From sequence record DRR378314_434: a DNA stretch of 64,000 bases; one strand, given 5' to 3'. Positions 2,510 through 7,446 of this stretch are shown here, one piece after another; the stretch's first letter is position 1, and each line of letters begins with the position of its first letter. The notes below the pieces were generated by a model. The model made no database searches. It was not told where the DNA came from and was given only the letters and a program-made list of their open reading frames with translations. The position numbers were made by a program, and so were the translations under genes.

Positions 2510-3502
2510 CTAAAGACCAGCGCGGATAGTTTTGCTACTTAACTCATGAGCATGATCTAAAGCATCAATAGCCGGTACTTCAATATTCGGAATAATTCCC
2601 GTCCTCTCCCAGTTTTTTTCAGTCGCCGTTATTATCGGTCTAAATAGTGAAATACGAAACGCAAGCGTGTCGGTAATTCGGCGTACTCCGACATAAAAAC
2701 CGGCACTGGCGGTGGTGTCACCAACCAACACGGCCTTTGAATTAGCCTGTAAAACACCGGCGAAAATTTCAGAAGCACTGGCTGTGTTGCGGCTGGTTAA
2801 TACCCAAACTGGAAATTCACCGCGAAAACCTTTGTGAGCTACGGTTTTGGATGCTGAAATCTCTGCGGTCCTCTCGCTCTTAGAATTAAGCACATACCAA
2901 AGGGGTGTTTCGTCGGGCAAAAAATAGCTCAACATGTACTGAACTAAATCGGGCGAACCGCCAACGGTATCTCGCAAATCAATGATGATGCCGTCACTCT
3001 GCTCCAGAAAGTTAAAAGCTGCGTCAACGGCGTCCCTGGCCTGCTTGTCCGGCGAAAACTTATTAAACTTCAAATAGCCAATGTTACCGCTCAGGTAACG
3101 CACTTCCTCTAACCCATAGTTATTGGTTAACTTCCCTTCTTTATGGGTCAATATATGGGTAATTTCTTCGTCTGGGTTAACGGTATACAAACTTAGATGG
3201 TTATCGCCCGTAACTGCTCGTAAATCTTGTCCCAATACGTGCGCGAAGTCATCAAGAGACGTCAGCGAATCGTACTGTCCCAACTCTAGCTTGTTTAGAA
3301 ATAACGCCCTTAACTCGGGAACCACTTCCGGTTCTATGTAATTGGCCTGCATAACATCGAACGTTTTAGTCATCAGCTGACGAACATGTTTTGGCGACAG
3401 GTTGTTCTCATCTGCCTGAGAAATTTCCGAATTCGACAGTAGAGAAATAAGCAAAAGTAGCAGAGCAATAAGTCTGCAAGGTTTCAGTAAAATACTTTTC
3501 AT
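2510..3502 (-). CDS. Secreted S41-family peptidase
   Basis: Signal peptide; IGYLKFNKF, IIDLRDTVGGS, TASASE, GIIPNIEV motifs; start set at ATG 3502, 6 nt after SD AAAGGT. Confidence 0.85.
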   Translation of the reverse strand: MKSILLKPCRLIALLLLLISLLSNSEISQADENNLSPKHVRQLMTKTFDVMQANYIEPEVVPELRALFLNKLELGQYDSLTSLDDFAHVLGQDLRAVTGDNHLSLYTVNPDEEITHILTHKEGKLTNNYGLEEVRYLSGNIGYLKFNKFSPDKQARDAVDAAFNFLEQSDGIIIDLRDTVGGSPDLVQYMLSYFLPDETPLWYVLNSKSERTAEISASKTVAHKGFRGEFPVWVLTSRNTASASEIFAGVLQANSKAVLVGDTTASAGFYVGVRRITDTLAFRISLFRPIITATEKNWERTGIIPNIEVPAIDALDHAHELSSKTIRAGL

Positions 3503-3508
3503 AAGTTT

Positions 3509-3593
3509 ACCTTTAAAATCCATTAGTAAGGGCTGGCTTCAACCAGTCCAGTTTTCGTTATTCGTTTAGGAACTAATGAATTCAGATAAAGGC
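3509..3593 (-). promoter_or_regulatory. Predicted mRNA hairpin sequestering the SD of the S41 peptidase gene
   Basis: mRNA arm GCCUUUA-UCU-GAAUUCAUUAGU (3593-3572) pairs with ACUAAUGGAUUU-UAAAGGU (3527-3509): 19 bp including 3 G:U pairs, with a 3-nt bulge. Confidence 0.7.
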
Positions 3594-3986
3594 GTTTTTT
3601 ATTTTGAATTGCATGCCAACGTCTTTCCACCCGGATAGATGAAAACGACTTGATGGCTTTATTAAAAACCAATCAGTAAGAATAGGTTCGGTGAGCAAAT
3701 AAATATTAGCAACGGCAACGCTGAACTTAGTTTCATCAACACGCTCAAACTGCCAGTTTGGCGACTGTTTATGGTGTTCAAATTGACTCGCGCTTGAGTA
3801 TGGTGAAGCCGAGACAGCAGTGTTGTCATATACCTGGGACGTAATAGACTTATCGGCTACAACGAACTGAGTATTTGTAGTCGAGTCAGGGTTACTGAAA
3901 AACAGCCAGCAGAACACGCACAGCATTATCGCCGTAATTGTGATTTTTGCAGTCTGAAAGGCTTGTTTTTTGGCCGCATCAACCAT
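3582..3986 (-). CDS. Putative VemP-like exported leader / translation-arrest peptide
   Basis: N-terminal basic plus hydrophobic segment; C-terminus FHLSGWKDVGMQFKIKNAFI aligns without gaps to the VemP arrest segment HRIxGWKETNAMYVALNSQF; TAATG-coupled to the upstream gene. Confidence 0.65.
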   Translation of the reverse strand: MVDAAKKQAFQTAKITITAIMLCVFCWLFFSNPDSTTNTQFVVADKSITSQVYDNTAVSASPYSSASQFEHHKQSPNWQFERVDETKFSVAVANIYLLTEPILTDWFLIKPSSRFHLSGWKDVGMQFKIKNAFI

Positions 3987-4720
3987 TAACGTTTCTCACA
4001 CCCCCGTCCTTTCACATAGCTCTCCACAGCGCTGTTAATTTCGTCTTTAAGCCACGCAGGTCCGTAGTCCGTCATATCGTTATGCCGGGATTCTGGTATT
4101 TTCTTAACGCATATACCGTATTTCTCACTCTCTTGCTGTGACGGCAACACCCCGTCGTCTGCAGGGTAATCGCTGCCGCGAATTGAGAGCACACCAATAT
4201 CCTTATTGCGGGGAAGAGGAACGCGCCGGTGGTCAATCGTAATAACAGTTTCTATGTAATCCTTGCTTTCATTCGCAAGCCAGGACGAGATATCGCCGCC
4301 GTTTGAGTGGCCAATCAGCAGCAAGTCATTAAAATTGTATTTCGGGTAAGTTGGCTCGAGGTTGTGCTTAACGAAATCCAGCGTTTTAGCGCCCCTGCTC
4401 CAATTTTCGCTTCTGGTTTCATAAAGATCACCCGATACAGACAGCGCAGGATCGCTCTCTAGCTCATGGCCAATAGCCACAACCATATAACCCAACTGGT
4501 TTAGCTGCTTAGATAAAAAACTGTACTTGGTATGCGAAACTCCGTAACCAGCACTAAGAAAAGCTACCGAACATTTTTGAGCTTCACTACACTGTTCTTC
4601 AGAAGTGGGATACGAGATTTGTATAGGAATATTTCTGTCTCTGAACTCATCGTAAATCGTGTTGTTGGCAAAGCTAAATGAGCTGAACAATAAGCCTGCG
4701 AGTAATATGAGGAATCTCAA
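3986..4720 (-). CDS. Secreted alpha/beta hydrolase
   Basis: Signal peptide, GHSNGG nucleophile elbow, C-terminal His (SRHND). Confidence 0.8.
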   Translation of the reverse strand: MRFLILLAGLLFSSFSFANNTIYDEFRDRNIPIQISYPTSEEQCSEAQKCSVAFLSAGYGVSHTKYSFLSKQLNQLGYMVVAIGHELESDPALSVSGDLYETRSENWSRGAKTLDFVKHNLEPTYPKYNFNDLLLIGHSNGGDISSWLANESKDYIETVITIDHRRVPLPRNKDIGVLSIRGSDYPADDGVLPSQQESEKYGICVKKIPESRHNDMTDYGPAWLKDEINSAVESYVKGRGCEKR

Positions 4721-4827
4721 ATTATAGTCCTTTACGATTTGATTTCGAGTTCTCTAACTGTACTACGATTTAAAATCTATGTCTGCTTATCGCAGGGACG
4801 CTGCTCCCGGAAACATAGACGTTACAC

Positions 4828-5634
4828 TTATAATTTGCCTAAAAGCTTAATCAATTCATGCAGCACAAGTTCAGGCTCATCGATCTGAACAAAATGGCCG
4901 CTATTCTCTGTTAGGACAGCTTCACCTTGTGGGAACTGATTCACCCACTCGCTTTGATATTGTCCCCACAGTTCACGACCTCGCGCCGTCTCAAACGCAT
5001 TTGACGGTTGTTCTGCCACCTTAACACCTGCTATCAAGGTGACAGGTATATCACCAATCTCTGAAAAACCTACAGCCTCAGATTTATCCCAAATCACATC
5101 CAAAAAGCACCATTTCCCCTCGCCCATCGCGTAATCGTTCTTTTTAATTGCATCGATTTCATCCTGGCCACCTGAGGGATTTAGCTCTGTGACGATATCA
5201 ACATCGCGAGGGTTTGCAGGATCAATCATAAGTAATGCCGCAACGTCGCCCTTATATTTAGCAGCAAAGTTTCTCGCTGTTACTCCACCAAGAGAATGAC
5301 TCACATAAACGAAAGGTCTGTCTATATTCAACTTGGTAAGCAACTGGTCAACTTCATTCACGTAGTCTGAAATATTCCGCTGTCCTGTGCAGGGGTCGGA
5401 GTTACCCTCACCCAGCCGGGAAAACCTTATGCCGGTTATTTCCTCTGGCAAATCACTCCAAATTGAGTCCCAGCCTGCCATTCCGGACAACGCGCCCGCA
5501 TCAAACAGAACAACTGTGTCACCACCTGCTTTTATCTCATACTCGATACGACCGCCATCCACTTCTATCATGGATGATGCACCTGCCTGAGCGCTTAGAA
5601 AGATAAAAAGAAAAAGACTTATTAGTTTTTGCAC
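4828..5634 (-). CDS. Secreted alpha/beta hydrolase
   Basis: Signal peptide (AQA/GA), SHSLGG, SGHFVQIDEPE. Confidence 0.8.
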   Translation of the reverse strand: MQKLISLFLFIFLSAQAGASSMIEVDGGRIEYEIKAGGDTVVLFDAGALSGMAGWDSIWSDLPEEITGIRFSRLGEGNSDPCTGQRNISDYVNEVDQLLTKLNIDRPFVYVSHSLGGVTARNFAAKYKGDVAALLMIDPANPRDVDIVTELNPSGGQDEIDAIKKNDYAMGEGKWCFLDVIWDKSEAVGFSEIGDIPVTLIAGVKVAEQPSNAFETARGRELWGQYQSEWVNQFPQGEAVLTENSGHFVQIDEPELVLHELIKLLGKL

Positions 5635-5654
5635 CGTGTTTCCTTACTATAGAG

Positions 5655-5702
5655 TGCTAATGCCGCACTCACGGGATTGTCATATGCAGCGCTTGGTTAA
5701 GC
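5655..5702 (-). repeat. Degenerate integron attC-like site
   Basis: Minus strand GCTTAAC-CAAGC-GCTGCAT...GTGAGT-GCGGC-ATTAGCA; R'' contains the upstream gene's stop; L boxes pair with one extra base; R' has ATT instead of GTT. Confidence 0.4.
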
Positions 5703-6245
5703 ACTTTTCACCGTTAGTTTCTGCCAAATTTCCAACCATTTTTTTTCAGCTATGCGCTTTCTAAAATCGACTGGCTTGGGCCTCTTGTTATTCAGCGTAA
5801 TGGAGTAATTAAATAAAGGCTCGACGCCAAAAGGGGCGACAATGACTATCTCCCCATTATCATCTAACCTAGCTCCAACAGCTGTTTCAACTTCAATCCA
5901 GTAACTCATAGCGTTTGAAGCTGACGTATATGGTTTATCCGAGTTTCGCTCATGCATTCTCGCTTGATTTTTTACCGACCAGGGAAAATCAGAGATGCCG
6001 TTGAGCTTATTTTCTATACCTCGATCTCTAGCCTTGGCGATATCTTTCGGATCGAAGTAGATTAAATCTATATCGTTAAGCGGCGTTGCAGATGAAAAAC
6101 TATGCATCTTGTCCCAGGCGAGGTTGCGGACAAAGCCTGCAGCAAGACACCAGTCGGGCAGACGCTGTTCAGCAGCCAAATAAAGTGCCTTCATGCGTTC
6201 CGAGTCTTCTTTTATCCATTTTTTGAGCTGTTCTTCGTAGTCCAT
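5697..6245 (-). CDS. Nucleotidyltransferase family protein (DUF925/NTP_transf_6-like)
   Basis: LAAGFVRNLAWD, DIDLIYFD, WSVKNQARMH, ETAVG, APFG motifs; start moved to ATG 6245. Confidence 0.85.
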   Translation of the reverse strand: MDYEEQLKKWIKEDSERMKALYLAAEQRLPDWCLAAGFVRNLAWDKMHSFSSATPLNDIDLIYFDPKDIAKARDRGIENKLNGISDFPWSVKNQARMHERNSDKPYTSASNAMSYWIEVETAVGARLDDNGEIVIVAPFGVEPLFNYSITLNNKRPKPVDFRKRIAEKKWLEIWQKLTVKSA

Positions 6246-6495
6246 TGGGTGCCTGATATTTATACAGTGTGCATACGTACTTAGTAACTCGACCAATTAC
6301 TGACGACATTCTGCAACGCACCGATAACGCTAATTTTAATTTCGTTATGTAACTGACATTAAACGAATGAAAACCGCAATTCAAACACATACCCACGAAC
6401 GGCTTCCCAGTACCAACTCTTAATACACCTTGCTCAACTACTAGCCCAAGCTCCTGTTAAAAAAATACGGTTGCCGTTGCAGGCTAGTTTACCGT

Positions 6496-7446
6496 TTATT
6501 CTGCCTTAGGTTCTCCCGTTATCCAGGCGTTTATCTCTTTATACATTAGACCTTGCGAAAACGGTAAACCGTGGTAATCATCATAAATAACCAGCTTATG
6601 GGGATGACTAATATCGGATAACTTATCCGCTAAGATCTTTGCTTGCTCCACCGAAACCCTTTCATCCTTGGCTCCGTGAAGTATGAGGATAGGTAATTCA
6701 TCAGGCAGCTCATCTAACCAATAAACTACTGAGCGCTTCCTTAATTCCGACTCTTTGTTACTCGTGAAACTGGGGACTCTATAATCGAAGACCTTTTCCA
6801 TTTCAGGCCTTTCTTCAATTGTTTTGAATAAATCCGAGGGGGCACCAAGAACCGTCAATGATTTTATATTGCTCAGTTCTTTTAGTGATATAAAAGCCGA
6901 CATTGCTCCCCGACTAAACCCAACCATATGAATTTGGTTTTCATCTACGTATGGTAACTGAGAGGCTAGCCGAACAATATTAATAACGTCTTTCACATCG
7001 CTTCCGCCAAACTCATCAACACTCTCGCCCGGTCCATCAGTTAACTCCATTCCACCTCTGTATTGAGTGGCTAAAACAGCAACTCCCATTTCTGCTATAG
7101 GTTTCAAATGCAGGAAAATACTGGAGTAGTTTAGAGACCCAAAGCGGCCATTACCTCCCCGATTGAAAATGACCACGGGAACTTTCTCGTCGTTCTCGAT
7201 TTTCGGAGTTAACAGTATTCCGCCAACAGGATACTGGCCGCTTTGGTAGACAATGACCTTACAGGTAAAATTAGCTTTTAAATCCAGGAACTCTTTTTTG
7301 TTTATTCTTGAGTGCTTGGCCTCTTCATAAGTATCCCCGAGGCACTTTTTTTCTCTAAGAATATCGCCAGATTCATTCGCCAATGAGCTGTCTGAAAATA
7401 TTAACGGAATAAATATTAAAGCTAATTTTGTGATGTTCCCTATCAT
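6496..7446 (-). CDS. Secreted S9/prolyl-oligopeptidase-family hydrolase
   Basis: Signal peptide, FNRGGN, GFSRG, LHGAKDERV, terminal His. Confidence 0.8.
   Translation of the reverse strand: MIGNITKLALIFIPLIFSDSSLANESGDILREKKCLGDTYEEAKHSRINKKEFLDLKANFTCKVIVYQSGQYPVGGILLTPKIENDEKVPVVIFNRGGNGRFGSLNYSSIFLHLKPIAEMGVAVLATQYRGGMELTDGPGESVDEFGGSDVKDVINIVRLASQLPYVDENQIHMVGFSRGAMSAFISLKELSNIKSLTVLGAPSDLFKTIEERPEMEKVFDYRVPSFTSNKESELRKRSVVYWLDELPDELPILILHGAKDERVSVEQAKILADKLSDISHPHKLVIYDDYHGLPFSQGLMYKEINAWITGEPKAE

Follow-up and report, generated by a model that had tools for sequence, protein, structure and literature searches.

A hairpin masking the Shine-Dalgarno sequence of an IRBP-like S41-family gene behind a VemP-related leader, and its likely opening by a ribosome at the leader's end

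What does a short membrane-targeted leader do in front of the gene for a secreted, IRBP-like protein of the S41 family? The question is raised by a locus in sequence record DRR378314_434, of which a stretch of 64,000 nucleotides was analysed (hereafter the window), and which we place in Idiomarina from the protein names and contig titles returned by searches. The initial annotation had described a hairpin in the mRNA that pairs the leader's last codons with the Shine-Dalgarno (SD) element of the downstream gene, and had taken it as independent support for an arrest peptide of the kind found in secM-secA, vemP-secD2 and mifM-yidC2. Here, the hairpin, its conservation, its recurrence in relatives and the ancestry of the leader are considered in turn, and arrest is weighed against simpler ways in which such a hairpin could act.

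On the minus strand, the order of genes is hydrolase-like gene, leader, a 79-nt gap and the S41-family gene (Table 1), and the ATG of the leader is overlapped by the TAA stop of the hydrolase (TAATG). In the I. aquatica locus (L005), no such hydrolase precedes the leader. A promoter-like site is found at 4748-4721, upstream of the hydrolase-like gene. This gene is also the nearest of three secreted alpha/beta-hydrolase-like genes that lie in a row on the minus strand of 3986-7446 (3986-4720, 4828-5634 and 6496-7446), with the leader module at their end.

Table 1. Coordinates of the leader/S41-family module and of its hairpin in the window
Feature	Position	Strand	Basis or remark
alpha/beta-hydrolase-like gene	3986..4720	minus	Pfam/ORF list; context only, outside the conserved module
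Leader ORF, 134 aa	3582..3986	minus	C-terminus SRFHLSGWKDVGMQFKIKNAFI, then the stop codon
VemP-like arrest-motif region (putative), R114-I134	3585..3647	minus	W120-K121 aligned to VemP W143-K144
Outer helix, 5' arm (anti-SD), GCCUUUA	3587..3593	minus	On Ala132 GCC, Phe133 UUU and the first base of Ile134 AUC
Leader stop codon UGA	3582..3584	minus	Junction of outer and middle helices
Middle helix, 5' arm, GAAUUCAUUAGU	3572..3583	minus	RNAfold and covariation
Inner stem-loop, GG.CUGGU-UGAA-GCCAG.CC, hairpin tip	3530..3549	minus	Core stem CUGGU-UGAA-GCCAG at 3546-3533
Middle helix, 3' arm, ACUAAUGGAUUU	3516..3527	minus	RNAfold and alignment
Outer helix, 3' arm, UAAAGGU (the SD element)	3509..3515	minus	RNAfold; core AAGG at 3513-3510
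S41-family start codon AUG	3500..3502	minus	Conserved; SD score
S41-family, IRBP-like protein, 330 aa, signal peptide, secreted	2510..3502	minus	Regulated gene

AUG 3502 is the real start of the S41-family gene. It has the best SD score among the candidate starts, and in 12 of the 14 distinct Idiomarina sequences the alternative ATG upstream of it, at 3523, opens a frame of only three codons. Furthermore, AUG 3502 and its SD are kept in all 14. An RNA library of a relative (90-95% identity) holds two contigs that bridge the leader/S41 junction, X2 record 6 (3020-3787) and X3 record 9 (3444-3635). These come from one metatranscriptome sample in which DNA carry-over is possible, and as contigs they can show neither a single transcript nor its ends or level; they are weakly compatible with co-transcription, and nothing more.

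As to the protein itself, Pfam recognises Peptidase_S41 (9.3e-27) and, as its IRBP-type N-terminal domain, Peptidase_S41_N (1.3e-09). Among solved structures, it comes closest to modules of IRBP/RBP3, which are not proteases (E 2e-24 for one module), with CtpB (6e-11) behind. No PDZ domain was recognised by Pfam, and 11 aligned family members share no invariant Ser or Lys in the region where we take the motifs of the S41 Ser-Lys dyad to lie. Judging from these features of the sequence, the protein may be a binding protein rather than an active protease.

The hairpin is well supported as a predicted fold. RNAfold of 3490-3610 returned it as both the minimum-free-energy (MFE) structure and the centroid, at -24.8 kcal/mol, with the GCCUUUA/UAAAGGU pairing, the bulge, the middle helix and the inner stem all at the minus-strand positions where the initial annotation had drawn them. 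Shuffles of the same segment averaged -14.9 (sd 3.2), which gives a z of -3.13, and 1 of 200 dinucleotide shuffles was equally stable; in a 241-nt context the hairpin is unchanged (z -2.70). The middle helix has 12 pairs, G-U included, and is set off from the outer helix by a 3-nt bulge, UCU at 3586-3584, the final base of which opens the UGA stop (3584-3582). At the other end, six nucleotides (3508-3503) separate UAAAGGU from the AUG (3502-3500). The total pairedness of the window's SD is 0.80 versus 0.58 in shuffles, a value that 6 of 100 shuffles match.

Such a structure between two genes might instead be a transcription terminator or attenuator, an internal promoter or a member of a known RNA family, readings that we consider very improbable. 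Neither a terminator nor a promoter pattern was found on the minus strand of 3509-3593, no U-tract follows any stem of the hairpin, and Rfam gave no relevant family at E<=1 in 3300-4100, a chance miRNA match lying elsewhere and on the other strand. What does score as terminator-like is the plus strand at 3530-3549, where the inner stem is followed by AGTTTTCGTT. This is the wrong strand for the genes concerned, and the pattern is probably incidental because no plus-strand gene ends nearby. That the relative's RNA contigs run through the junction also speaks, weakly, against a terminator.

Is the fold under selection? The leader is present in five of the 28 Idiomarina genomes searched (5 of 61 genomes overall), the nearest genome being without it. 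The alignment comprises, five genome contigs and 10 metagenome contigs included, 19 loci with the leader end plus the window; locus L020 is without the leader end. Within Idiomarina it amounts to 14 distinct sequences, on which a 26-pair structure was scored. Standard pairs occupy 97.8% of the alignment cells, compared with 28-53% when the partners are slid. Compensatory double changes are seen at five pairs versus 1.8 in shuffles, with 1 of 500 shuffles matching; two of the five are in the middle helix (columns 78-137 and 85-130) and three in the inner stem-loop. The RNAalifold consensus has the same helices. Covariation across orthologues, which had been suggested as a check on the hairpin, is thus borne out, the fold being kept in 14 of 14 sequences and five pairs being changed on both sides. 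Every double change comes from the I. aquatica-like lineage (two of the 14 sequences), and middle-helix columns 80 and 81 carry uncompensated mismatches in two of the 14 sequences each. The outer helix, both arms of which are under other constraints, is invariant in all 14; it gives no covariation signal in Idiomarina because it never varies.

Comparison of the window with L005 shows where change has been tolerated: 13 of 22 loop positions differ, as do 8 of 16 in the inner helix with pairing kept, and none of 14 in the outer helix. Codons 131-134 (AAC GCC TTT ATC) have zero synonymous change in the 14 sequences, and of the 17 preceding codons able to vary, 13 do. As far as sequence comparison goes, the divergence of the loop with kept helices and the frozen codons 131-134 favour constraint. 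The leader stop is UGA in 12 of the 14 sequences and UAA in two.

A second conserved hairpin was noticed at 3621-3649 on the minus strand, within the leader coding region (codons S113-D122, the SRFHLSGWKD core). It is a prediction of RNAalifold, and two of its pairs, at columns 12-33 and 18-27, show compensatory changes. Such a stem might delay ribosomes as they approach the motif; alternatively, it might simply follow from the codons used.

We turn to the leader itself. Its N-terminus is K-rich and is followed by a hydrophobic stretch at about residues 16-31 (by inspection only). Pfam and NCBIfam offered no meaningful family for it, and phmmer searches of PDB sequences with the whole leader and with its last 32 residues returned no VemP chain; a phosphatase match among the PDB sequences, at E 1.6, was judged to be chance. 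The 18 leader homologues, all named ones of which are from Idiomarina, have a nearly invariant C-terminus; although the protein evolves fast, no part of it is as well conserved as the last 20 residues. An exhaustive HMMER search extended the set to small homologues of 114-137 aa, down to about 30% identity, which all end R-x-SGWKD-xx-L-x-[YF]-K-I-x-N-A-[FL]-[IL]-stop; two of the small homologues are named from Aliiglaciecola and Paraglaciecola.

Profile searches then show two genomic settings for this family. At the level of the order, 38 matches were obtained in 401 genomes, and the 30 loci fetched comprise 3 S41-linked, 26 secD-linked and 1 that is neither. At the level of the family, 40 matches were obtained in 401 genomes; the 30 loci examined comprise 23 S41-linked, 6 secD-linked and 1 neither, with 11 further places lying outside these 30. 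In nine of nine relatives checked, Pfam confirmed the S41 call downstream of the leader. The two kinds of leader are related: the leader-family HMM finds secD-linked ORFs at per-genome E of 1e-4 to 1e-7, and hhalign of 20 S41-linked versus 25 secD-linked leaders gave 99.3% at E 4.4e-20 over 77 columns, a region that takes in a mid-region motif and the WK core (RLSGWKDSNLxY). One of the secD-linked ORFs has Vibrio/Enterovibrio relatives. On this profile homology to secD-linked VemP-like ORFs, we assign the leader to the VemP superfamily, the homology having been tested via these ORFs.

The core residues agree with this assignment in part. Passages of Fujiwara 2024 (PMC10987492) give the VemP C-terminal consensus as RxxxWKxxNxxY, and secD-linked ORF cores such as SRISGWKDSNLLY fit it. 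In the core of the window's leader, H116xxxW120K121xxG124xxF127, only the W and K are exact, and H, G and F stand at the consensus R, N and Y. Five of 17 full-length Idiomarina-type sequences have the consensus R in place of H, and distant S41-linked relatives such as L060 and P0021 carry the consensus at all four positions. VemP is defined, among other things, by its place upstream of secDF; the gene downstream of the leader is, instead, a Peptidase_S41.

Several loci depart from the common form. At L057:668-1962, on the minus strand, a leader relative has THNK for the SGWK core and keeps the end ...LLYKIINAFD; the gene downstream encodes a 250-aa protein with an HExxH motif and a weak, sub-cutoff match to Peptidase_MA_2, and no S41. 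The locus may be a third target class or a decayed module. In an S41-linked leader at L023:1411-1878, SGWKD reads SDGRT with the flanking SNLQY kept, as if two compensating frameshifts had destroyed the W-K anchor. At L022:482-2060, in a genome of low completeness, the leader has a changed tail (…IYKAKQKTP) and two ORFs stand in place of one S41 gene; this is either a pseudogene or the result of assembly errors in A-runs. Two long proteins, P0026 (962 aa) and P0031 (1565 aa), have 7-9 repeats with a YHLSSWxDNGD motif and match leader residues 80-127 at E 1e-9 and 4e-4; we set them aside as probably repeat-amplified chance similarity.

Does the architecture also occur among the relatives? We folded 22 S41-linked loci from stop-36 of the leader to start+12 of the S41 gene. 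In 16 of them, which represent 11 genera, pairing between the 11-nt SD window and the 23 nt at stop-9..stop+13 has a probability of 0.62-0.98, this stop-proximal window having been defined after a few examples had been seen. Shuffling the upstream region gave means of 0.06-0.13, with the native value reached by at most 4 of 100 shuffles. The loci differ in their SD sequence, and each SD has its own complement: the one in L056, 8 nt long, runs across the stop and the two codons before it, and those in L021 and L055 lie just after the stop. Swapping upstream regions across loci lowered the mean SD pairing from 0.56 to 0.19, and in the 16 positive loci the native value was reached by at most 3 of 20-21 swaps. 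Since total SD pairedness is only modestly above shuffles, the specific feature is the SD's partner and not pairing as such. Six loci are without stop-proximal SD pairing (L059, L061, L065, L067, L075 and L076), the start being uncertain in two of them.

L058 was left out of the recurrence folds and of the register and swap tests because its S41 start overlaps the leader stop. Its leader (stop at about 1917) runs to W+29, counting from the Trp of the WK core; the TGA overlaps the S41 ATG (ATGA), and there is no intergenic hairpin. Loci linked to secD were folded as a positive control. Nine of these 23 lack the SecD N-terminal pattern used for start placement, and 4 of the 14 scored have an SD pairing of at least 0.36 to the predicted stall window, with spacers of 120-330 nt and uncertain starts.

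The recurrence bears on a further explanation, by which the hairpin is mainly an element of mRNA stability or processing, or a structural spacer between the cistrons, its overlap with the SD being incidental. The inner stem-loop and much of the middle helix are dispensable for SD masking, yet they are conserved with covariation, and an internal stem-loop is also present in most relatives. An incidental overlap, however, does not account for SD pairing with the stop-proximal region being the one feature that recurs in 11 genera with unrelated sequences, nor for the frozen synonymous sites of the anti-SD codons. We regard this explanation as improbable, and keep to a mask on the SD.

What, then, opens the mask? 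In VemP, W143 and K144 are critical residues, and the ribosome stalls with Q156 in the P site and F157 in the A site, i.e. at W+13 and W+14, according to passages in PMC7793623, PMC8887479 and PMC5449182. Counting from W120 of the leader, W+13 is Phe133 (3590-3588) and W+14 is Ile134 (3587-3585), the last sense codon. The predicted stall, with Phe133 in the P site and Ile134 in the A site, would thus sit over the anti-SD arm, in agreement with the alignment to VemP on which the initial annotation had relied. We modelled a ribosome by forcing the 25 nt it covers to be unpaired. The probability that the SD is unpaired was 0.02 in the free mRNA and 0.02 with Gln126 in the P site, compared with 0.44 with Phe133 in the P site. 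By these modelled values, the SD would be unmasked only by a ribosome on the leader's last codons.

Having raised the possibility of arrest, we would note that the modelled value is again 0.44 for a terminating ribosome, with Ile134 in the P site and the stop codon in the A site. The model by its nature cannot tell stalling from termination, and the hairpin alone fails to separate arrest from coupling because a terminating ribosome opens it equally well. The SD mask had been put forward as independent support for an arrest peptide. What stands of this is that a ribosome at the leader end unmasks the SD; it does not stand as independent proof of arrest.

The main rival is therefore plain translational coupling without regulated arrest, in which the S41-family protein would be made in fixed proportion to leader translation. 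The terminating ribosome would transiently melt the hairpin, allowing loading at the adjacent SD or re-initiation, and the conserved C-terminus of the leader would have another role. Coupling of the rpmI-rplT type is an example, in which the downstream RBS is tied up by the end of the upstream ORF and has to be opened by upstream translation; there, unlike here, neither an arrest peptide nor an export signal is present. The rival is serious. Apart from the modelled ribosome, the stop codon sits directly opposite the SD in the hairpin, and the overlap of leader stop and S41 start in L058 (ATGA) is that of classical coupling. Across the relatives, the position of the anti-SD is tied more closely to the stop codon (-9 to +13) than to the W+13 codon. 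Thus, in W+14 tails the anti-SD is within reach of a ribosome stalled at W+13, whereas in several W+15 tails it lies +11 to +23 from the P site of the VemP register, beyond the reach of a stalled ribosome; as read from these sequences, the position in the W+15 tails appears better suited to a ribosome at the stop codon. L059, with its W+22 tail, points the other way. Here the partner of the SD lies 22-26 nt ahead of the stop (+5..+9 relative to the W+13 codon), a geometry that favours the arrest register; this is a single case with 5 pairs only.

Coupling nevertheless leaves three features unexplained. First, the last 20 residues of the leader are strongly conserved. Second, the leader is homologous to the arrest core of secD-linked VemP-like ORFs. 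Third, there is a need for a membrane-targeting signal about 100 residues upstream. On balance, we consider plain coupling possible, and rather unlikely as the whole explanation. The comparison with secM-secA, vemP-secD2 and mifM-yidC2 drawn by the initial annotation accordingly holds for the SD mask, for the homology to VemP and for recurrence in relatives; it is not decisive for arrest, as a terminating ribosome opens the SD equally well.

The structure, its covariation, its recurrence in distant relatives and the homology of the leader to secD-linked ORFs are computational results; stalling itself, its position, the response to export and the benefit of inducing the S41-family protein are what we infer. 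We propose, as the reading we find somewhat better than even, a VemP-type arrest with a ribosome-opened SD mask on the IRBP-like S41-family gene. In the free mRNA, the hairpin 3593-3509 would lock the SD of the S41-family gene in a helix with the leader's last three codons, and this helix would be opened only by a ribosome sitting on the leader's last codons. Most likely, the nascent chain of the membrane-targeted leader would stall the ribosome at Phe133/Ile134 unless Sec pulling releases it. Because a stalled ribosome would cover the anti-SD arm and half of the middle helix, the SD and AUG 3502 would stay exposed and the S41-family protein would be made. Under efficient export, termination would be quick, the hairpin would re-form, and basal coupled translation only would remain.

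Compared with vemP-secD2/F2, the tail of the present leader ends at W+14, one codon past the predicted P site; VemP stalls at Q156/F157 and ends at residue 159. The present locus further differs in its 79-nt intergenic region with a single three-tier hairpin and in its Alteromonadaceae-type host, which is not Vibrio. The target there is SecDF; here, it is an IRBP-like S41-family secreted protein. In common with vemP-secD2/F2 of Vibrio alginolyticus, as described in parts of PMC7793623 and PMC5449182, are an export signal at the N-terminus, a C-terminal core of the type RxSGWK[DE]xNxxY (with H, G and F at R, N and Y in the present leader), an ORF end a few codons past the stall register, and a downstream RBS masked by a stem-loop that the stalled ribosome opens, in the present locus as a prediction.

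A second system comes from a host in the same order. For uDF_RQH_Enterobacterales-secDF2 of Alteromonas naphthalenivorans, the relevant passages of PMC10987492 report that stem mutations and a premature stop showed arrest-dependent opening of the SD stem-loop, and also note transient opening by non-arrested ribosomes. It differs in its motif, RGPP (RAPP-like), which is unrelated to the WK..N..Y core, and in its target, secDF. The secM-secA system of E. coli and mifM-yidC2 of B. subtilis share the logic of a leader that is exported or inserted, an arrest at its C-terminus and a stem-loop that masks the SD (described in parts of PMC10987492), whereas their arrest sequences are unrelated and their targets are translocon components.

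Passages in PMC7897499 and PMC10987492 have all characterised bacterial monitoring substrates (SecM, VemP, MifM, RAPP-type etc.) regulating Sec/YidC components, and the published searches for such substrates that they describe looked only upstream of genes for Sec/YidC components. Papers from 2022 and 2024 call the VemP sequence or operon specific to Vibrio, in the portions of PMC8887479 and PMC11470409 concerned. Searches of the main texts of the literature turned up neither an arrest peptide ahead of a protease gene, S41 or other, nor a VemP-like peptide in a setting other than sec. The 339 VemP-like sequences counted in a passage of PMC10987492 may already include secD-linked members from Alteromonadaceae. 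The mRNA switch is therefore of a known kind; its target and its spread in a bacterial family appear to be new.

The wider proposal is that a sister branch of the VemP family was recruited in Alteromonadaceae-type bacteria to induce, by way of a stop-proximal SD mask, a secreted IRBP-like S41-fold protein, such that VemP-like control would not be confined to Vibrio or to translocon genes; we would put this at about even. If true, it would be the first nascent-chain 'monitoring substrate' with an envelope protein, and not the Sec/YidC machinery, as its output. In the family sampled, this form is the commoner one, the S41-linked loci outnumbering the secD-linked by 23 to 6 of 30. A homologous leader with the same switch before a different secreted protein, in at least 14 genera, would widen the known uses of secretion monitoring. 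The locus also provides a compact natural switch of 85 nt with clear mutational tests. For the biology of these bacteria, the proposal suggests that secretion monitors control more than the export machinery, and points to an export-linked role for bacterial IRBP-like S41-fold proteins.
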